A stretch of 64,000 nt of DNA from Nitrosopumilaceae archaeon (GTDB lineage Archaea; Thermoproteota; Nitrososphaeria; Nitrososphaerales; Nitrosopumilaceae). The stretch is from NCBI GenBank assembly GCA_965200155.1, contig CBDATR010000024.1, positions 192,001 through 256,000 of the forward strand, written 5' to 3'. The notes below the pieces were generated by a model. It was not told the origin of the DNA. It was given only the letters and a program-made list of their open reading frames with translations, and made no database searches. A program made the position numbers and the translations under genes. Below, piece after piece: positions 4,983 through 61,841 of this stretch; positions within the stretch are counted from its first letter, which is position 1, and every line of letters begins with the position of its first letter.

Positions 4983-5835
4983 TAGCGGTCACCATAAGTC
5001 TTTGAGAACATGGCACCTCGTTCCTGGACGATACATGGCTTTGGCTTGTCACCATTATTCCCGCCCTGACGCCTCCGGTTGGTCGGGAAATGGTTCCCCC
5101 CGGACGACACGCTCTGCCACTCCTACAGGGAAACCGGTTACTAAACGCCGCGTTGATATCGGCGTGAAATTCCTGGTTACATATTGAATGTGTCCCTAGT
5201 TGATCGTGATTTGTTGTCAACGTGTCCACACACGTGATAGGTCTGGCTCGTTGGGCGGGTAAATCGCCCCCTCGTGTATCTCGCTGGCACAGCCACCAAT
5301 TCAATCCCCAGTGCCTCGCACTTTTGTACTACTTTCCGGCGGAACTAGCCTACCCGGTTCTCGCGCATGGAGCGGTTCATTGTTATTTTGTGGTTCTCGC
5401 CATGACTGGTCATTACTTTCGGTGATAAATCCTCTAGTACTACCTTGCCTGCACCTTTGGTGACCGCGCGGACTACTCTATTCATGGAGTCGTTCGCGAT
5501 ATTATTCGCTTTCTGTCGTAGTTGAATGATTTTCTTCTCAATCTTTCGCTTCCTGCGCTTACCTTTTCGCGTTCTAATACTCTGGAGTGCGCTAATCTCC
5601 CGTAATATGGAACAATGTCTCATGTTATGGATCATCGTGTTCCCGTTGGTGTCAGCTGTTACAGCTAGATGTTTCCTGCCGACACCCACGCCGCGAACAA
5701 CGCCGGTCTATGGTTTCTCCCGTATATTGATGTGAATCTCGAATTGACGCTCCCTGCTCTTGTTAACTCGTTCCACTATCTTGAATGAGCGTATGTCCCA
5801 AGAATGATCGATTGGTTTGGTTGTTCTCACCACAC
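4983..5835 (-). pseudogene. tnpB: 3' half of TIR-bounded tnpB element (RuvC-II, Zn finger, RuvC-III, right end), cut by an IS481-like copy
   Basis: GVGRKHLAVTAD, VVLEDL, SQT.HVCGHVD, ADINAA with stops/frameshifts; right TIR TAGCGGTCACCATAAGTCTTTG. Confidence 0.85.
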
Positions 5836-6794
5836 TCAATAGTACGAAAAGTAAGTCCGCTTAGGATCCGGCGTACAGTAGTTCAGATTGCACAAGCCAG
5901 ATGATAAAGAGAATAACAGAGGAATCAAGACAAAAGAGGCGTTGCCGCAACCAATATAGCTCAAGACCTGAAACAAGACACGTACGAAGATTGTGAACCA
6001 GAGGACGGGAACGACTCGAGTAAAGATGGGCAGGCCCATGATACCAATCACCGCTGCCCAGATACGAATGGTAACTGAAGCATATCACAAGGATCCCACC
6101 GGAGTAGTACGTATTGCAAAGAGGCTTAGACAGAATTACAATATATCGCGCAGTATATCGCATAATGAAAAAGAACGGTACGGCAGGATCATCACCTACA
6201 AAGTCAGAGTGGGTACGCTATGAGCGTAAATATTCCAATGCAATGTGGCACTGGCATGTCATGAAAAGATGAGCGCTTCAAGGGACTGAATCTCATAGAT
6301 GATGCATCCAGGTGTATAGTCGGGGTGGCACTATTTGAGCATGCAACCTCAGAGAACGCCACTCTATTACTGAGACTGGCAATGAAACGATTCGGCGCCC
6401 CTGCATCTTGGATAACGGCGCGTGTTTCGTAGGACAATAAAAGGGCAAGAAAAGCTGGAAACCCACTATTCTAGGAAGAACTGCTGGATCAAGACATCAT
6501 ACTAATCAATTCCAGACCATACCACCCGCAGACAAATGGCAAACTGGAGCGCTTCCATGGAATGATTGAGGACGAGGGGACTCTTATTTAAGAGTCCAAT
6601 GAGATATGGCATTATGACAGTCTCCGGGATTATTTAGACTACTACAATGAGAGAAGATTGCACTTCTCACTGGATAGATAACGGCGAGACACCACTCCAG
6701 GAATAAAAAGGCGATCCAGACAATTAGGGCAAATGATGCAAAATGGATGGAGTGAGATGCCAATGACTAGCGGACCGACTTTTCATACATTACA
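5836..6794 (+). mobile_element. IS481-like element copy 1, transposase decayed
   Basis: Ends TCAATAGTACGAAAAGT and ACTTTTCATACATTACA; frameshifted MGRP, WVRYE.KYSNAMWH, DDASR, HPQTNGKLERFH, YYNERRLH. Confidence 0.88.
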
Positions 6795-15550: not shown

Positions 15551-15659
15551 AGTTCATATTGCACAAGCCACGAAAGGCTATGGTAAAATTCTAGCAGTCA
15601 GTTGCTGACCATGCGTGTACGAAGTTCATATTGCACAAGCCACGAAAGGCTATGGTAAA
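15551..15659. repeat. 37-bp direct repeat x2 around a 35-bp unique insert (CRISPR-like unit)
   Basis: AGTTCATATTGCACAAGCCACGAAAGGCTATGGTAAA at 15551-15587 and 15623-15659. Confidence 0.92.
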
Positions 15660-21380: not shown

Positions 21381-22332
21381 TCAATAGTACGAAAAGTAAG
21401 TCCGCTTAGGATCCGGCGTACAGTAGCTCAGATTGCACAAGCCAGATGGTAAAGAGAATAACAGATAAATCAAGACAAGAGGTGTTGCCACAACCAACAT
21501 AGCTCAAGACCTGAAACAAGACACGTACGAAGATTGTGAACCAGATAACGGGAACGACTCGAGTAAAGATGGGTAGGCCCATGATACCAATCACCGCCAC
21601 CAAGATACGAATGGTAATTGAAGCATACAGCAAGGACCCCGCCGGAGTAGTACGTATTGCAAATAGACTTAGACATACATATCGCGCAGTATATCGCATA
21701 ATGAAAAAGAACGGCACGACAGTCTCATCACCTGCAAAGTCAGAGTGGGTACGCTATGAGCATAAATATTCCAATGCAATGTGGCACTGGCATGTCATGA
21801 AAAGATGAGCGCTTCAGGGGACTGAATCTCATAGATGATGCATCCAGGTGCATAGTCGGAGCGGCACTATTCTAGCATGCAGCCTCAGAGAACGCCGCTC
21901 TATTACTGAGACTGGCGATAAAGAGATTCGGCGCCCCTGCATCTCGGATAACGGCGCGTGTTTCGTAGGACAATAAAAGGGCAAAAAGAACTGGAAACCC
22001 ACTATTCTAGGAAGAACTGCTGAATCAAGACATCATACTAATCAATTCCAGACCATACCACCCGCAGACAAATGGCAAACTGGAGCGCTTCCATGGAATG
22101 ATTGAGGACGAGGGGACTCTTATTTAAGAGTCCAATGAGATATGGCATTATGACAGTCTCCGGGATTATATAGACTGCTACAATGAGAGAAGGTTGCACT
22201 TCTCACTGGATATAGATAACGGCGAGACACCACTCCAGGAATAAAAAGGCGATCCAGACAATTAGGGCAAATGATGCAAAATGGATGGAGCGAGATGCCA
22301 ATGACTAGCGGACCGACTTTTCATATATTACA
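21381..22332 (+). mobile_element. IS481-like element copy 3
   Basis: Same ends and decayed transposase. Confidence 0.88.
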
Positions 22333-40696: not shown

Positions 40697-41667
40697 TGTA
40701 ATGTATGAAAAGTCGGTCCGCTAGTCATTGGCATCCAGCTCCATCCATTTTGCATCATTTGCCCTAATTGTCTGGGTCGCCTTTTTATTCCTGAAGCGGC
40801 GTTTCGCCGTTATCTATCCAGTGAGAAGTGCAATCTTCTCTCATTGTAGTAGTCTAAATAATCCTGGAGACTGTCATAATGCCATATCTCATTGGACTCT
40901 TAAATAAGAGTCCCCTCGTCCTCAATCATTCCATGGAAGCGCTTCAGTTTGCCATTTGTCTGCGGGTGGTATGGTCTGGAATTGATTAGTATGATTCTTG
41001 ATCCAGCAGTTCTTCCTCGAATAGTGTTGGTTTCCAGTTCTTTTTGCCCTTTTATTGTCCTATGAAACACGCGCCGTTATACGAGATGCAGGGGCGCCGA
41101 ATCGTTTCATTGCCGATCTCAGTAGAGTGGCGTTCTCTGAGGTTGTATGCTAGAATAGTGCCGCCCCGACTATACACCTGGATGCATCATCTATGAGATT
41201 CAGTCCCTCCTGAAGCGCTCATCTTTCATGGCATGCCAGTGCCACATTGCATTGGAATATTTATGCTCATAGCGTACCCACTCTGACTTTGCAGGTGATG
41301 AGACTGCCGTACCGTTCTTTTTCATTATGCAATATACTGCGCGATATGTATCATGTCTCAGTCTCTTTGCAATACGTACTACTCCGGCTGGATCCTTGCT
41401 GTATGCTTCAGTTACCATTCGTATCTGGGTGGCGGTGATTGGTATCATAGGCCTGCCCATCTTGAGTCATTCCCGTCCTCTGGTTCACAATCTTCGTACG
41501 TGTCTTGTTTCAGGTCTTGAGCTATGTTGGTGGCGGCAACACCTCTTGTCTTGCTGAATCGCTTCGTGATTCTCTTGATTCCTCTGTTATTCTCTTTATC
41601 ATCTGGCAATGAAATAGTCAGCTACTGTACGCCGGATCCTAAGCGGACTTACTTTTCGTACTATTGA
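40697..41667 (-). mobile_element. IS481-like element copy 4, inverted
   Basis: Reverse complement of the same element; shares private indels with copy 5. Confidence 0.88.
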
Positions 41668-45336: not shown

Positions 45337-45508
45337 ATAATTGCTTAGACCACTTTTCCATATATGCTGCCAAAGCAGAGACTAAATCCTGTTATTTCAC
45401 TACACAGTATAGGATTGGCAGGGACCATTTCCTACCGGTTTGCTTATGCTTGCTTACCGGATTGTGCCATGAAAACATATCTTAATCCGGAGCGACCTAA
45501 ACGGTTAC
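45337..45508. mobile_element. MITE family B relic
   Basis: Intact end GCGACCTAAACGGTTAC ending at 45508; other end only 11/17 matching. Confidence 0.45.
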
Positions 45509-45559
45509 GTGCTATGATGCTCGCCTGTCTTTGTGTGTGTGCGGTTACCTTTCTTTGGG

Positions 45560-45873
45560 ATCTGGTCCATAATCTTCGTACATGTCTTGAACTAATGCTT
45601 GGGCCCTGGGCTATTTGTGACGGCAGCGCCCTGCGACGCACGTCGCGCCCTCTCCTTCCGCGCATCATAATGCTTGGGCCCTGGGCTATTTGTGACGGCA
45701 GCGCCCGGTGGCCGCGCCGTTAAAGCGACATACTGGATTCCAATGCTTGGGCCCTGGGCTATTTGTGACGGCAGCGCCTCTTTCTGTCGCGATTCCTCTC
45801 TTTACCATGTCGCTTGTGCAGCCTGAACTACTGTGCGCCGGATCCTGAGCGGAATTACTTTTCGTACTATTGA
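45560..45873 (-). mobile_element. Diverged IS481-like left-end fragment hosting the CRISPR-like array
   Basis: TCAATAGTACGAAAAGT end; encodes IAQ..SISSRHVRRLW HTH. Confidence 0.8.
45594..45778. CRISPR. CRISPR-like mini-array: three identical 37-bp repeats, spacers of 38 and 36 bp; repeat derived from IS481 coding sequence
   Basis: AATGCTTGGGCCCTGGGCTATTTGTGACGGCAGCGCC at 45594, 45669, 45742; no cas genes or leader; function unproven. Confidence 0.65.
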
Positions 45874-45932: not shown

Positions 45933-46940
45933 TCAGTACTTGTCAAGACCAGTTGGTTCTGGTTGCAATGATGATTCCATTTCGAACTGTTCTGGTAGTT
46001 GGTCTATGATCCTGTCTGACGCTATTCCCACATAGACCAACCGCTCTATTATGGCGCGTACCATGTCACCATTCACGCCCTCTAGTGGATAATTCGTGAT
46101 GCCACTCTCTGCATTGGAACGATACTTGTATCTGTCAACGAACCATCCTACAGGCGTTCTACCATTGACTGAGTAATGGATTGTTGGTATGTTATCGTAT
46201 ACTAACACGTTATCCAGTAGTAGTTTGGATTGATCAACTATTCCCTTTGGTCCGGGACCGTCATTGGGTTTCTTACCAAAGGCTATTTTTTCGGGAGCGT
46301 CAGGTATTGGAACCAGCGACTCGCCCAGATTGTAACGGGGGCCGGTCTCATAATTGAGATGCAAGTCAGCTAGCTGTCTACCTGCTTTCATGAATGAGTG
46401 GAAATCGGGCGCCATGGGCATGTTTGGAAAACCGCGAACGAGGAATACCTGGTACTTGGTACGATAGCCGGGGTGGTGTAGAATCCCATACGTATAGTAG
46501 AATATATCCTCCTTCGTTATAGCATCATCATGGTATCGGTTCTGGTATTGTTTCAGCGCCCAGTCTGTAATGTTATCATTCATTTCGTCACCATCATTGT
46601 TGTTATTTTGTTTCTTTACTTTCATGGGAAAGCACTGGGACGGTGCAATGTTGTTGAGATCCGGCGTCATTCCCGTTATGAATACTGAGAACTCGCCCTT
46701 GATCTTGTTGGGTACTATTATCGCCAGGTTCTCGTATGGTGGACTGGTGGACTTACCTTGTGGGTGTTCTCATTATTTTTGTTCTTTGTACGCAAGGGTA
46801 AACAACGAGATGTTTCATGTACATGGATGTCCGGTGTTATATCGGTGACTAATGTTGAGAATTCACCCTTTATTTTATTAGGTACCAAGGGGACTCTTAA
46901 AGAAGAGTCCAACAAGGACTGTCATCAAATCGTACTATAA
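45933..46940 (-). pseudogene. Silent duplicate of the Type ISP C-terminus with two further TRD cassettes
   Basis: 45935-46577 is a colinear, ungapped copy of 48182-48824; preceded by two KIKGEFS...PD cassettes. Confidence 0.88.
46889..46912 (+). mobile_element. 24-bp hairpin micro-insertion
   Basis: CAA-GGGGACTCTTAAAGAAGAGTCCAA-CAA. Confidence 0.75.
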
Positions 46941-48161: not shown

Positions 48162-51100
48162 CTAGGGAATAGGCGCCTTGTAGTACTTGTCCAGGCCGGT
48201 TGGTTCTGGTTGCAATGATGATTCCATTTCGAACTGTTCTGGTAGTTGGTCTATGATCCTGTCTGACGCTATTCCCACATAGACCAACCGCTCTATTATG
48301 GCGCGTACCATGTCGCCATTCACGCCCTCTAGTGGATAATTCGTGATGCCACTCTCGGCATTGGAACGATACTTGTATCTATCAACGAACCATCCTACAG
48401 GCGTTCTACCATTGACTGAGTAATGGATTGTTGGCATATTATCGTATACTAACACGTTATCCAGTAGTAGTTTGGATTGATCAACTATTCCCTTTGGTCC
48501 GGGACCGTCATTAGGTTTCTTACCAAAGGCTATCTTCTTTGGAGCGTCAGGTATTGGAACCAGCGACTCGCCCAGGTTGTAACGGGGGCCGGTCTCATAA
48601 TTGAGATGCAAGTCAGCTAGCTGTCTACCTGCTTTCATGAATGAGTGGAAATCGGGTGCCATGGGTATGCTTGGTAAACCACGAACGAGAAATACCTGGT
48701 ACTTGGTACGATAGCCGGGGTGGTGTAGAATCCCATACGTATAGTAGAATATGTCTTCCTTTGTTATTGAATCATCATGGTATTGGTTCTGGTATTGTTT
48801 GAGCGCCCAGTCTGTAATGTTATCTTTCATGGAGTCATCGTCTCCTGTACTTTCAGTGGGAATACCTGACCATTTGGTACTACTTGTAGATCCGGTATCA
48901 TTCCCGTTATGAAGCAACTCCACTCGCCCTTGATCTTGTCGGATACTATTATCGCCAGATTTTCCTGTGTAATTACCTTCTCCGGTACAGGACCTAGATT
49001 TTGGTCTGCCTTTACATGGTGAGTGGTGAGTGGTGAGTGGTGAGTGGTGAGTGGTGAGTGGTGAGTGGTGAGTGGTGAGTTACCTACCTCTTGTTCATTC
49101 TCTGCATTTTGTTTCTTTACTTTCATGGGGAAGCACTGGGATGCCTCGTGAATGTGTAAGTCCGGTGTGGTGTCTGTGACAAATGTTGAGAATTCACCTT
49201 TTATTTTGTCCGGTACCATGATGGACACGTTCTTGGTGTCTGGGCGTGGGTAGAATAAGGGTATACGGTATGTGCTGGTGATAAAAGTCGTATCAAAATA
49301 GAGATATTGTTTGAAAAATGGTCTATACAGAGACATTCTAATGTTGGTATCATGGAACATTAGTGGTTCATCTAGTTTCCGTATACTATTCTGAAGATCT
49401 TCATTCCATGCAACATATTTCTTATCCTTGTCAAAATTTTTCTTCAAGTCCTGCTTGGCACAATGTTCTATTGTTCTTCTCATATTCTCTTCCAGGTCTT
49501 GGGGCGATGCGTTGTATACCCAAACATCTCTGTGTGTTTTCAATCCGTTAGAGTACATATGAAATAGAGTATTGACTGTCTTACCACGTTTTCCCTCTTT
49601 ACTTCCCATTGAAGTCATGGAATCCCATCGTTCACTGGTATCACCACGCTGTTCCAACCAGTCATGATAACGGTCTGGTGTTATAATTTGCCAGTCTTGT
49701 ATTCCGGCGATGGAGCCATATTCTTTTATCTTTTCTAGTTTCTTATCCCTGTCCAGATAATCACCAATGTCGTGGTAGTGGATGGTGCAAGATTGTTTGG
49801 CCGGGTTCTTAACTAGTATGGTTATGGCTGTTGCCTCACGGGAGCCACCGCCAAACACATTGCCTGCCTCGCGCCTTCGTTGTTCTCCCTGTGTTTTTGC
49901 ATCACCTCGTAAATTGAAACAGTAGACATCCGTGAACTCCATTCCAAGACAGGCGCGTATGCCTGCTTCACTATTCCCAGTGATATATGCGGATGGTGTG
50001 ATTAAACCGATAACTCCGGAATCACCTATTCTTTCTGATACCCAGCGGAGGGCCTTGATGTAGGAGTTGTATAACCCTCTAGTGTTCCCTTTGGGCGCGT
50101 TTTTGATGTATGTCTTTGACACACTATCTCCCAGATACGGATGCGAGACATTCTTGTTATCCTCATTGGCCGTCTTCTGACCGCCACTATATGGCGGATT
50201 CCCCACTATGACATTGACGTAATCCATATTCTGCCGTTTCACCCTAGTCATGGCTTCCTCCAGGGAATCATCTGTAATCTTGATCTGCTTCTTACGCTGT
50301 TCGGAATCCAGCCTGTATGAGGGGCTCTGTGCGAATGTATCCAGGTATGATATCCCGCCAAATGGAACATACTCCCCGCTCTTTTTCTGGTATGATGCCT
50401 CAATATTGGACATGGCGACATAGAATGCCGGTAACATTATTTCATTCGCGTAAATATCATTCTGGTACTTGTCAGGTAGTGCATCATCACTGATCATCCC
50501 TCGCTCTATTAACTGGGCAAGGAATATCCCGGTACCGGTGAACGGGTCCAGCACCTTTACTGCTCTATCATTGAATGTTTTCCCAAACTCCGATTCTAGT
50601 ACATGAGAGACTGATGAAATAATGAAATTCACGATTTCGACTGGTGTGTGTACGATTCCATGTTTGTCCGCGGACTTTTTATCCGAGCCAATGAAGAATG
50701 CGTCATATATGGCGCGCAGGAAATCCTGCTTGGCATCCGGCTCCTTGAATAGTTCAATGTCTGCCTGTATGCCCGTATAGAATGCCTCGAACTGTTCTAG
50801 TTGTCCCTGTATGTTTAGTCGTTGCATGGTATTATCGAATGCTGATGCCACCGGGTTAGCATTCTTGGGGAACATTACATTGAATACTCTGGACATTACA
50901 GCATGCTGTGATAATGCACGAATGGTCTGCTCATATGTCAACGTGAATCCGACTATATGTTTCAGGTTCTCGTGTAATTGTTCAATGATGGGCGCAGTTT
51001 CCGGCTCAATTTTGATTCGCTGTTTCAGTTTGGTCTCTATTATTACGGCTTGCTCCCCTAGTCGCTTGCCCATGTTGGCGTGGTAACTGGCATCGCCAAG

Positions 51101-53218
51101 ACTCAGTATGACATTCTGTACATCCTTTAACAACTTGTCACTGAGTCCTGCCCCCAGTGTACGAATAATCCAGTCATTCAGTCTTGGTGGTATTTCTGAC
51201 GGATCCGGTGGCTCATGTTTACCACTCTTTCCCGACTTGGACAGTACATACTTGTTCAGTAGCTTTTGCAGTCCATCATCATGTGCTGTGATCGCACGTA
51301 ATATCTTGCTTATCTGCTCGTACCGTGTGTTCCTTTTCAACACATGATGTGGATCATCACCCTTCAAGACTGGGATGGGGACTATAACGTAACCTGTTTT
51401 CTTTCCCTCTGATTTTCGCATTACTCTACCAATACTTTGTATTATGTCGATGGGTGAGTTCTTGGGTTCCATGAATACAACGGCATCCAAGGCTGGAACG
51501 TCCACGCCCTCCTGCAAGCACCTGGCATTACTGAGTATACGAATCTCCTTTGGATCACTATCACTATTTCGTAACCAGTCTATCCGCGCTCCCCTGTCCA
51601 GCGAGTTGGTAGAACCATCAACATGCCTCGTTACAGTCTTGTAACCGTCCAGATCGGGATCAGTCTTTAGTAGTCTCTCGCTTAAATTATCAAAGCTTAA
51701 TGTTTCCTTCGTGATTTTATCAAGCTTGAGTGGTTTCTTTGCCTTGTCCATGTTCCTGCCATGATTGGAGAACAACTTTGACGCTTTTATGGTGTTGAAG
51801 AATACCATCACCCTCTGTAAGGGCCGGAATTCCTTAGTATCACCATCATATGTGATCGCCTTACAGATACTGTTCACTTTTGACATGTAGTCTATGTCCA
51901 TATCCTCGTAATCCTTGAGATCATCACCATGTTCCCTTGCAGCCTTGATGATTTCACCATACGCATCATTCTCATCAACCTCTGGTAGTATTATTTTGAA
52001 AGGTGTGAGTAGTCCAATATCGACCGCTTTTGAGAATGGTAAGTCATATAGTACATCGCCATATTTCTCATTATCCATGGAGTATACTTCCAGTCCTTGA
52101 TCCGTGGCATCCTTTCTACCCTTTTCTGTATAGACACGGGGGGTGGCAGTCATGTAGAGCCGCCTCTTGGCTGGAACCTCGCTATTCTTGTGTGCAGTCA
52201 AGTAATAGGATTCCTTGATTTTCTCGGCGCCAGTGGTGCGGTGGGCCTCATCGAATAGAATTAGATCAAATATACCATTTCTGTCCCGTATGGCTTTTCC
52301 CACACGCTCCACTGAATTATACGTGGAAAATATGACACGCATACCTTTTCGGTTCTCCATAGAATGTAGTTGCTCCTTTATCGTTTCCACATCTGTGGAT
52401 GGTTGTATGGGACACTCAGTGATGGAACCTGCCTCATCTGTACCGGACGACTTGTCAGAGCATACTGCCATGTACTGATGTTCTATGGAACGGTTATCTG
52501 CCCACTCTCTCATCGCCTGCGGTATCAGTGATATTGACGGTACCAAGTATAGAACAAGACCATCTTTCCCTGGAATGGTTTCTGCGATATGGAGTGATGT
52601 TATGGTCTTGCCAGTCCCACATGCCATGATGAGCTTACCGCGATCTGCACCCTGTAGTCCGGTGACTACTCTTTGAACTGCTTCCTTCTGGTGATCTTGT
52701 AATGTCTTTGGTTTCACTGCTCTCTTCATTCCACTCCAGTCAATTCTGCTCTGGCGGAGATCAGCCTTCATGAGTATTGAGTAACCGGATTCTTCGAACG
52801 GTTTTACAATATTCCTGCTTACGTGCGCCCCTGTGAATACAAGAATGAGTCTGTCCATCTTTTTACTCTCCTTTACGACAAACATGTTTGAGATCTGATT
52901 CTCGTGGATACTGGAATCATCATTCCAGCACTTGCACTGAATGCCAACTAACTTGTCATCCTTGTCTCTGGCAACCAGATCAATTCCAATGTCCGGTTCA
53001 CGATACCAGTCATGGAATAGTTTTACTTCCTTGAACTCATTCTTGTATATGCTGTCATTCTTGAAGTAGTGTAGCATTAGTTTCTCAAATCGGACACCAC
53101 GTTCAGTCTTGCTAACTTTACTGCCCTTGCGGCTGATATCCTTTTCATCATCGGTCTCCGCACGTAGCCTTGCTAATGCTTGATCAAAAGTTTCCACTAT
53201 TCCTGGAATGATTCCCAC
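48162..53218 (-). CDS. Type ISP (LlaGI/LlaBIII-like) restriction-modification enzyme, currently split by a frameshift (ORFs 53218-48827 and 48923-48162)
   Basis: Mrr-like DIGIDLV..IQCK, MACGTGKT, DEAH, TATPR, QSIGRVMRK, LDPFTGTG, NPPY, C-terminal DIFYYTYGILH. Confidence 0.92.
49018..49080. repeat. (GGTGAGT)9 heptanucleotide microsatellite inside the R-M gene
   Basis: 63 bp perfect; encodes (SPLTTHH)3. Confidence 0.97.
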
Positions 53219-53258: not shown

Positions 53259-54308
53259 TCAATAGTACGAAAAGTAAGTCTGCTTAGGATCCGGCGTACA
53301 GTAGCTGACTATTTCATTGCACAAGCCATATGGTAAAGAGGATAACAGAGGAATCAAGAGAATCGCGAAGCGATTCAGCAAGACAAGAGGTGTTGCCGCA
53401 ACCAACATAGCTCAAGACCTGAAACAAGACACGTACGAAGATTGTGAACCAGAGGACGGGAATGACTCAAGATGGGCAGGCCTATGATACCAATCACCGC
53501 CACCCAGATACGAATGGTAACTGAAGCATACAGCAAGGATCCAGCCGGAGTAGTACGTATTGCAAAGAGACTGAGACATGATACATATCGCGCAGTATAT
53601 CGCATAATGAAAAAGAACGGTACGGCAGTCTCATCACCTGCAAAGTCAGAGTGGGTACGCTATGAGCATAAATATTCCAATGCAATGTGGCACTGGCATG
53701 TCATGAAAAGATGAGCGCTTCAGTGGGGACTGAATCTCATAGATGATGCATCTCATTATTGCGATATTATATTTAACGCGCATTTTACGCTTCAGGGGGG
53801 ACTGAATCTCATAGATGATGCATCCAGGTGTATAGTCGGGGCGGCACTATTCTAGCATACAACCTCAGAGAACGCCACTCTACTGAGATTGGCAATGAAA
53901 CGATTCGGCGCCCCTGCATCTCGTATAACGGCGCGTGTTTCATAGGACAATAAAAGGGCAAAAAGAACTGGAAACCAACACTATTCGAGGAAGAACTGCT
54001 GGATCAAGAATCATACTAATCAATTCCAGACCATACCACCCGCAGACAAATGGCAAACTGAAGCGCTTCCATGGAATGATTGAGGACGAGGGGACTCTTA
54101 TTTAAGAGTCCAATGAGATATGGCATTATGACAGTCTCCAGGATTATTTAGACTACTACAATGAGAGAAGATTGCACTTCTCACTGGATAGATAACGGCG
54201 AAACGCCGCTTCAGGAATAAAAAGGCGACCCAGACAATTAGGGCAAATGATGCAAAATGGATGGAGCGGGATGCCAATGACTAGCGGACCGACTTTTCAT
54301 ACATTACA
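53259..54308 (+). mobile_element. IS481-like element copy 5, carrying a 37-bp duplication with insert
   Basis: Same ends and decayed transposase. Confidence 0.88.
53716..53824. repeat. 37-bp direct repeat x2 (one mismatch) around a 35-bp unique insert (CRISPR-like unit)
   Basis: CGCTTCAG(T/G)GGGGACTGAATCTCATAGATGATGCATC at 53716-53752 and 53788-53824. Confidence 0.92.
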
Positions 54309-60877: not shown

Positions 60878-61841
60878 TCAATAGTACGAAAAGTAAGTCC
60901 GCTCAGGATCCGGCGTACAGTAGCTGACTATTTCATTGCACAAGCCATATGGTAAAGAGAATAACAGAGGAATCAAGACAAAAGAGGCGTTGCCACAACC
61001 AACATAGCTCAAGACCTGAAACAAGACACGTACGAAGATTGTGAACCAGAGAACGGGAACGACTCGAGTAAAGATGGGCAGGCCCATGATACCAATCACC
61101 GCCACCCAGATACGAATGGTAACTGAAACATACGGCAAGGATCCCGCCGGAGTAGTACGTATTGCAAAGAGGCTTTAGACAGAATTACAATATATCGCGC
61201 AGTATATCGCATAATGAAAAAGAACGGTACGGCAGGATCATCACCTGCAAAGTCAGAGTGGGTACGCTATGAGCGTAAATATTCCAATGCAATGTGGCAC
61301 TGGCATGTAATGAAAGATGAGCGCTTCAGGGGACTGAATCTCATAGATGATGCATCCAGGTGCATCGTCGGGGCGGCACTATTCTAGCATACAACCTCAG
61401 AGAACGCCACTCTACTGAGATTGGCAATGAAACGATTCGGCGACCCTGCATCTTGGATAACGGCGCGTGTTTCGTAGGACAATAAAAGGGAAAAAAGAAC
61501 TGGAAACCCACTATTCTAGGAAGAACTGCTGGATCAAGACATCATACTAATCAATTCCAGACCACATCACCCGCAGACAAATGGCAAACTGGAGCGCTTC
61601 CATGGAATGATTGAGGACGAGGGGACTCTTATTTAAGAGTCCAATGAGATATGACATCATGACAGTCTCCGGGATTATGTTGACTACTACAATGAGAGAA
61701 GGTTGCACTTCTCACTGGATATAGATGACGGCGAAACACCACTCCAGGAATAAAAAGGCGACCTAGACAATTAGTGCAAATGATGCAAAATGGATGGAGC
61801 GGGATGCCAATGACTAGCGGACCGACTTTTCATACATTACA
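60878..61841 (+). mobile_element. IS481-like element copy 6
   Basis: Same ends and decayed transposase. Confidence 0.88.

Follow-up and report, generated by a model that had tools for sequence, protein, structure and literature searches.

The phenomenon closest to the locus described here is the placing of spacers outside the proper array by the CRISPR adaptation machinery. In Escherichia coli, off-target activity of the type I-E Cas1-Cas2 proteins produces so-called neo-CRISPRs (Nivala, Shipman & Church 2018, Nat Microbiol 3:310; via 10.1101/148544, PMC7054753), and the target is reportedly duplicated by one repeat length (Nivala 2018). That work used over-produced Cas1-Cas2, and the natural cases amount to 'circumstantial evidence in two other species' (citing preprint 10.1101/148544). 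The Cas1-Cas2 proteins of Pyrococcus furiosus, whose repeat has 30 bp, carry out off-target full-site integration on plasmids in vitro (Grainy et al. 2019, PMC6698737). For isolated arrays, too, off-target acquisition is among the origins that have been proposed (Shmakov et al. 2020, CRISPR J, cited in 10.64898/2026.04.27.721218), and mini-arrays are found in viruses (PMC8616872). As regards the choice of spacers, the Cas4-Cas1 fusion of type I-G systems (formerly I-U) is reported to select PAMs efficiently (Almendros et al. 2019, NAR).

The locus analysed here is a three-repeat array in an archaeal genome of the family Nitrosopumilaceae; by the window we mean the whole stretch of 64,000 nucleotides that was analysed. 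The array is very likely a natural product of off-target Cas1-Cas2 integration (a 'neo-CRISPR') by the resident type I-G system, the role of the enzyme being inferred from the scars in the genome and not from an integration assay. It resembles the E. coli neo-CRISPRs in two respects: spacers would be placed by Cas1-Cas2 outside the array, and repeated use of a site can yield a new array. It differs from them firstly in being a natural record, in an archaeon and in a type I-G system with a Cas4-Cas1 fusion, and secondly in scale, since 63 distinct ectopic spacers are found at 61 loci, about half of them self-derived and some of them spread by IS copies. With the P. furiosus reaction it shares the repeat-length spacing of the cuts, and in both cases the sites have bases in common with the leader-repeat junction and with some positions of the repeat, while the identity to the repeat is low (43% in P. 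furiosus, PMC6698737, and 11/36 in the window). Unlike the in vitro products, those described here are fixed in a genome, with a repeat of 36 bp and the motif CAGT|vTTKC....SC. Isolated, orphan and mini-arrays are likewise small and away from cas genes; however, the repeats of such arrays are mostly identical or close to a cas-linked repeat, whereas here each locus has its own 'repeat' made of local sequence. The resident system itself has type I-G kin, with the Cas4/Cas1g fusion, 36-nt repeats and a consensus ATTTCCGCG..CGCGGCCTCATTGAAGC common to four distantly related loci. Unlike what is reported for the fusion studied by Almendros et al. 2019, the self protospacers found here have a weak TTC at most (4/32). 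In the full-text literature searched, no paper on a natural genome bearing dozens of these scars turned up, but Nivala 2018 and Shmakov 2020 may contain natural examples. The kind is already known; the instance is new, at an unusual scale and richness.

The preliminary description of the array, made from sequence alone, had reported three identical 37-mers, with spacers of 38 and 36 bp, built from the helix-turn-helix part of a transposase. The three 37-mers are confirmed: they lie at 45594-45630, 45669-45705 and 45742-45778 on the + strand, their starts being separated by 75 and 73 nt; in 100 shuffles no match was obtained, and the whole 2.38-Mb assembly (51 contigs, 87.6% complete) contains three matches at <=3 mismatches, all of them the copies in the array. 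The spacer lengths of 38 and 36 bp are right for a 37-nt parse; a repeat of 36 nt with spacers of 39 and 37 nt is the better one, because the 39-nt identity of spacer 1 to C10:225673-225711 fixes its right border between 45668 and 45669. A unitig from public reads, 45630-45668 (39 nt), which is common to two loci, agrees with a spacer 1 of 39 nt. The two inserts have no kinship to each other or to the repeat. The array is built as follows.

45587-45605, + strand: leader-repeat-like junction TTGAACT|AATGCTTGGGCC, the presumed integration anchor, with 9/19 matches to the canonical junction.
45594-45629, + strand: ectopic repeat copy 1, identical to the other copies, adjoining the leader-like flank by the junction motif.
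45630-45668, + strand: spacer 1, 39 nt, GC 0.69, self-derived, the reverse complement of C10:225673-225711.
45669-45704, + strand: ectopic repeat copy 2, identical to the other copies.
45705-45741, + strand: spacer 2, 37 nt, GC 0.62, no source found.
45742-45777, + strand: ectopic repeat copy 3, identical to the other copies.

The neighbours of the array are an HtrA-like protease gene and a Type ISP fragment; there is no adjacent leader and there are no adjacent cas genes, these being located on contig C9. The repeat does not match the repeat of the resident array (11/36 positions identical in register), and it has no match in Rfam at E <= 1.

The sequence in which the array is embedded is a diverged piece of an IS481-family element, listed here together with five 'empty' homologous sites in other copies of the element, in which the repeated segment is single-copy, and with two further scars that also lie in IS481 copies of the window.

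45544-45873, - strand: diverged left-end fragment of an IS481-family element, hosting the array (BLAST homology at 45873-45755 and 45619-45544, ~82% identity to other copies).
5938-5968, + strand: 'empty' homologous site in an IS481 copy.
21481-21511, + strand: 'empty' homologous site in an IS481 copy.
41513-41543, - strand: 'empty' homologous site in an IS481 copy.
53389-53419, + strand: 'empty' homologous site in an IS481 copy.
60986-61016, + strand: 'empty' homologous site in an IS481 copy.
15551-15659, + strand: second scar of the window, in another IS481 left end, with exact 37-nt copies 72 nt apart and a spacer from C10:132853.
53716-53824, + strand: third scar of the window, inside the IS481 copy 53259-54308, with 37-nt copies (1 mismatch) 72 nt apart.

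In the alignment, the sequence of the element runs from its terminal TCAATAGTACG... to the first repeat and resumes past the last repeat (...AGTTCAAGACATGTACGAAGATT). The IS segment quoted in the preliminary description occurs five times in the window at <=3 mismatches and aligns with the repeat. The five 'empty' paralogues represent the unoccupied version of the site, but they are only ~80% identical to it; an orthologous empty site was found in none of 30 relatives, which are too distant for this purpose (the flanking protease gene is ~70% identical). At the third scar, the matches of the IS copy 53259-54308 to its paralogues overlap by ~36 nt where this copy has its repeat-spacer-repeat. 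In addition, the homologous 36 bp in the IS481 copy at C5:82614 took a different spacer. This site and the window site have a common border beside AGTTCAAGAC, while the other border has been moved by a 2-nt indel between the copies, as expected of an anchor combined with a 36-nt ruler.

A BLAST survey of the genome detected 96 left ends and 97 right ends of the element, which combine into 81 paired copies, mostly of 925-1050 bp, the majority of them broken. The top match of the best-preserved copy is NF033577 (IS481), at 142.7 bits and thus below the cut-off of 224, and the same copy matches the Pfam family rve (PF00665) above the cut-off, at 46.6 bits. The earlier statement that the minus strand of the repeat encodes ALPSQIAQGPSISSRHVRRLW is correct, and the peptide is present in the ORF 45444-45668 (-). 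The helix-turn-helix label could not be confirmed: the frame reading GVAATNIAQDL matches no Pfam family at E <= 10, and the repeated segment maps upstream of the recognisable transposase ORF.

The genome contains one match to Cas1 and one to Cas2. The Cas1 protein is a Cas4g/Cas1g fusion of 549 aa (NF049935, 710.7 bits, cut-off 560) and Cas2 has 91 aa (67.7 bits); neither has an internal stop. Beyond the main array there are genes for Cas3g, a Cas3 extension, Csb2 and Csb1, and together with the Cas4g/Cas1g fusion they identify the system as type I-G. A search for Csx17/Cas8g gave no match, but it is uninformative, as the control for that search also gave no signal anywhere. An IS element lies directly upstream of csb1. 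The main array (C9:71011-92087) has 289 repeats of 36 nt, 287 of them identical, with the canonical sequence ATTTCCGCAGCCTAACGGTTGCGGCCTCATTGAAGG, which is predicted to fold into an 8-bp hairpin with a 12-nt tail (-14.3 kcal/mol). Its spacers are most often 37 nt long (101 spacers), followed by 36 (85), 38 (63), 35 (16) and 39 nt (15), so that 280/288 fall between 35 and 39 nt, and their mean GC is 0.46. The canonical repeat was found in 0/30 relatives, and the closest Cas4/Cas1g that the species collection contains has 51% identity.

Two observations on the surroundings of the system may be added. The region past the I-G effectors (L007, C9:92000-111000) contains an IS element (DDE_Tnp_4), then a DUF1156 methyltransferase, a DUF499 protein and an SNF2-type helicase, and has the look of a defence island. 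Elsewhere, at C43:128228 (-), a single isolated copy of the canonical repeat, with 3 mismatches and leader-like sequence before it, abuts an IS481 end; this copy appears to be the remnant of a second CRISPR locus.

The array of the window is one of many. Our catalogue lists 67 repeat-spacer-repeat pairs at 61 loci, with 63 distinct spacers and a different 'repeat' at each locus; 56 loci have two repeats, four have three and one has four. Seven further candidate pairs, on contigs with a GC of <=0.44, were excluded from the catalogue. (The GC is 0.35-0.44 in 29 contigs and 0.45-0.52 in the other 22; the low-GC contigs may represent a separate replicon, a virus or a different organism.) The lengths of exact direct repeats in the whole genome peak at 36 nt (24 cases) and 37 nt (28 cases). 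Exact pairs of 36-38 nt have gaps of 34-39 nt in 41 cases, as opposed to 17 cases at all other gaps between 1 and 125 nt, and a scan tolerant of mismatches shows the offset peak at 72-75 nt. The ectopic spacers are 35-39 nt long in 63/63 cases, and 46/67 pairs have identical 36-mers; depending on the analysis, 42-47 of the 67 pairs were used where exact repeats were required. The length of the target duplication and that of the insert are thus those of the resident repeat and spacer. About half of the sites (30/63) are within repeated elements. No scars were found in about 83 kb of flanks of seven distantly related I-G loci from other organisms.

The scars are also in excess near the resident system. 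Within 10 kb upstream of the leader of the main array there are 5 ectopic spacers, as against 0.29 expected. Among them is a double ectopic insertion at C9:70400-70589 (= L006:18401-18590), with three repeats and units of 74 nt, which is placed exactly between the cas4-cas1 fusion and cas2 and leaves both ORFs open. Three further scars (C9:62504, 64791 and 65221) lie among broken genes upstream. As for the effect on genes, 6/20 loci in unique sequence are in open frames of >=150 aa, and among these 20 loci none shows an ORF shortened by >=30%. The length of the inserted unit is in frame in 33/63 ectopic cases as compared to 101/287 (Fisher p = 0.015), but this bias is not concentrated in the unique-sequence sites (9/22), and we regard it as a possible, weak hint only.

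A de novo motif search was carried out on 42 sites in both orientations, with 20 sets of random sites treated in the same way as controls. Only one of the two borders yielded a motif, c-a-s-t | v-T-T-(G/T)-C followed by (C/G)C at +10/+11; its information is 6.39 bits, against 3.92 +/- 0.23 in the controls (maximum 4.39). All informative positions agree with the canonical sequence GCGCAGT|ATTTCCGCAGCC (junction CAGT|ATTTCC....CC). A test that avoids circularity leads to the same result: the mean number of matches to the canonical 19-mer is 7.93 as compared to 6.40 +/- 0.24, and 0/2000 controls were as high; the window junction, with 9/19, is above the control mean of 6.4. At the leader-distal border only position 35, the last base of the repeat (C/G), stands out, and when compared over all 57 nt of leader plus repeat the sites match hardly better than the controls (20.7 vs 19.8), i.e. 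the target signal is confined to the junction and does not extend over the whole site. The window site has a motif score of 8.2 on the + strand and 0.7 on the - strand. However, this orientation (+) is opposite to that chosen by the motif for the homologous site C5:82614, and the orientations of single sites are therefore shaky.

The direction of growth can be read from a second repeated element, present at 66 loci, which carries the hot-spot 36-mer CTTGTAATGTGCAAGATCTTTCTTGGTAGACGCAAG; 13/66 loci have 2-4 repeats, and the hot-spot loci include C10:83012, C24:460667, C24:500845 and C10:6462. Most of the hot-spot arrays have the spacer ACGTAGG... in common, so that its spread is due to copying of the element; its place is always the end far from the leader-like flank. 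Adjoining this flank are another shared spacer and, at C24:500845, the unique ones. As the old spacer is far from this flank and the new ones are beside it, the arrays grow at the motif side, in the way that real arrays extend at the leader.

For 30/63 ectopic spacers a separate protospacer exists in the same genome, whereas 0/288 spacers of the main array match the genome outside arrays; for two ectopic spacers the only matches are in other copies of their own array. In the window, spacer 1 corresponds to the first codons of a gene with a NAC domain (NAC PF01849, 40.9 bits) at C10:225673-225711. For spacer 2 the rest of the assembly gave no match, and its 29-nt core has no exact match in the collections viral_contigs and metagenome_contigs. 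The search for protospacers suggested by the preliminary description gave a source in the genome for spacer 1 and none for spacer 2. As for a PAM, there is no clear motif beside 15 exact protospacers, and 32 near-full matches show a weak T-T-C upstream, with an exact TTC in 4/32; a PAM as weak as this is odd for a system containing Cas4. The same description had held that spacers alignable to host sequence would speak against a nascent array. This applies to spacer 1 and yet does not refute the reading, because integration that is off target and unselected should hold such self-derived spacers, as is the case for 30/63 ectopic spacers.

Two further features concern the supply of spacers. The ectopic spacer at C25:4806-4833 overlaps spacer 58 of the main array by 26-28 nt on opposite strands, and both probably come from the same foreign DNA. 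The single-copy self protospacers are biased to contig C10, which has 15/26 of them while accounting for 24.5% of the bases (binomial p = 3e-4). We can only suggest that this may reflect an effect of replicon, copy number or DNA ends on the supply of prespacers.

All junctions of the window array are present as unitigs, at a depth like that of the flanks, in three runs from two studies that are not on record as RNA, and the array is therefore not an assembly artefact. The three-repeat form is the only one in these three runs. Forms with one or two repeats, which had been proposed as a check, were not seen in the contigs of four runs, but contigs drop rare variants. Metatranscriptome contigs cover the array at a depth of 5-8, as compared to 26 at the neighbouring protease gene. 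These contigs show neither strand nor ends, and RNA libraries can contain DNA. On neither strand does the repeat of the window array form a hairpin (its folds, at -6.5 and -5.5 kcal/mol, are weaker than those of most shuffles), and for this reason we consider processing of the array into crRNAs unlikely. This is an inference from the lack of a hairpin and has not been tested.

These data can be brought together in a simple scheme, which remains inferred. In the decayed fragment of the IS481-family element, the integrase would dock on a short sequence similar to the leader|repeat junction, cut there and then, guided by a ruler, 36 bp further on the other strand. A prespacer of 35-39 bp would be joined in, with gap repair duplicating the 36-bp stretch; the second spacer would then come from another event at this junction, the order of the two events being inferred. 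The same process would have given rise to at least 61 loci in the genome. The arbitrary 'repeats' lack the canonical hairpin and handle, and the units would probably not be made into working crRNAs; we propose that this is why self-derived spacers survive there and not in the main array. The simplest reading is that self spacers are lethal in the expressed main array and harmless in unprocessed scars. Its sole support is that the ectopic repeat has no hairpin and no Rfam match, and processing is untested. The core of the preliminary description, i.e. that a non-CRISPR site in IS DNA was used twice and a nascent array is growing there, is supported by the dimensions shared with the resident array, the intact Cas4-Cas1 and Cas2, the empty IS paralogues and the 61 loci with a junction-like motif. 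What can be said against it is that there is no direct proof of Cas1-Cas2 making the insertions, their role being inferred from the scars, and that the excess of scars in this genome has no explanation.

Several other explanations have to be discussed. One possibility is that the array arose off target and has since been co-opted as a transcribed guide or antisense RNA, with the NAC gene or IS481 transcripts as conceivable targets. In favour of this are the metatranscriptome contigs over the array, the match of spacer 1 to the start of a housekeeping gene, and the fact that no form other than the three-repeat one occurs in the runs not on record as RNA. However, the contigs show no strand or ends and may derive from DNA, the repeat has neither hairpin nor handle for the Cas5/6-like Csb2, and sixty similar loci with unrelated spacers favour neutral scars, so that co-option is very unlikely. 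We give equally little credit to a Cas-independent origin, i.e. slippage, template switching or break repair that copied pieces of the genome between duplicated 36-mers. It is true that close to half of the inserts duplicate host sequence and that there is no clear PAM. On the other hand, such processes are not expected to give a fixed duplication of 36 nt with an insert of 35-39 nt, and the sharp peak is at the dimensions of the resident CRISPR; the border motif mirrors the canonical leader-repeat junction and new units are on the motif side; the scars are in excess beside the CRISPR leader; and one ectopic spacer overlaps a spacer of the main array by 26-28 nt. The weakest explanation, a genuine small array of a second CRISPR type, orphan or IS-borne, that resembles the IS by chance, can claim the regular layout of repeats and spacers, the identity of the repeats and the presence of the region at low depth in an RNA library, but it is all but excluded, as the repeat and both flanks are colinear with single-copy IS481-family sequence, only three copies of the repeat exist in a genome with a single Cas1, the repeat has no hairpin on either strand (as opposed to -14.3 kcal/mol for the canonical one) and no Rfam match, spacer 1 is the start of a host NAC gene, and 60 other loci have the same dimensions with a different 'repeat' each. 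A casposon or a second Cas1 was also considered and rejected, since the genome has a single Cas1 match.

Natural off-target integration by the resident system remains the preferred reading, and a bolder version of it, which we consider likely, is that this archaeal genome, which occurs in sponge metagenomes, is a natural long-term record of rampant off-target adaptation, with at least 63 spacers at 61 places. If this is true, the scars are not filtered by autoimmunity and therefore sample what the integrase takes up ahead of any selection, about half of it self DNA with a bias to one contig. Arrays would be born from arbitrary sequence, grow with polarity, be copied by IS elements and act as an insertional mutagen. 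The origin of new arrays and the capture of self DNA before selection are open questions, and most work on them has relied on over-expressed proteins of E. coli. The present genome offers a natural setting for them, with dozens of datable off-target events that have a target motif, a marked contrast in self spacers (30/63 vs 0/288), and arrays of three and four repeats growing from non-CRISPR sequence. It also points to a seldom-counted cost of CRISPR adaptation, namely insertion mutations of 71-75 bp across the chromosome. As regards annotation, such loci should not be labelled as CRISPR arrays or tandem repeats.

Finally, we mention some gene fragments. Two C-terminal fragments of a Type ISP restriction enzyme (PF18135) lie in the window at 45933-46670 and 48162-48923, beside an ORF of 1463 aa at 48827-53218 (all on the - strand). 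TnpB-like (OrfB_IS605) fragments were noted at 5345-5689 (-) of the window, named from its sequence only, and at L006:6111-6755 (-), the latter with 27.3 bits, below the cut-off. The sequence of the Type ISP fragments recurs at five other places of the genome with 96-98% identity.
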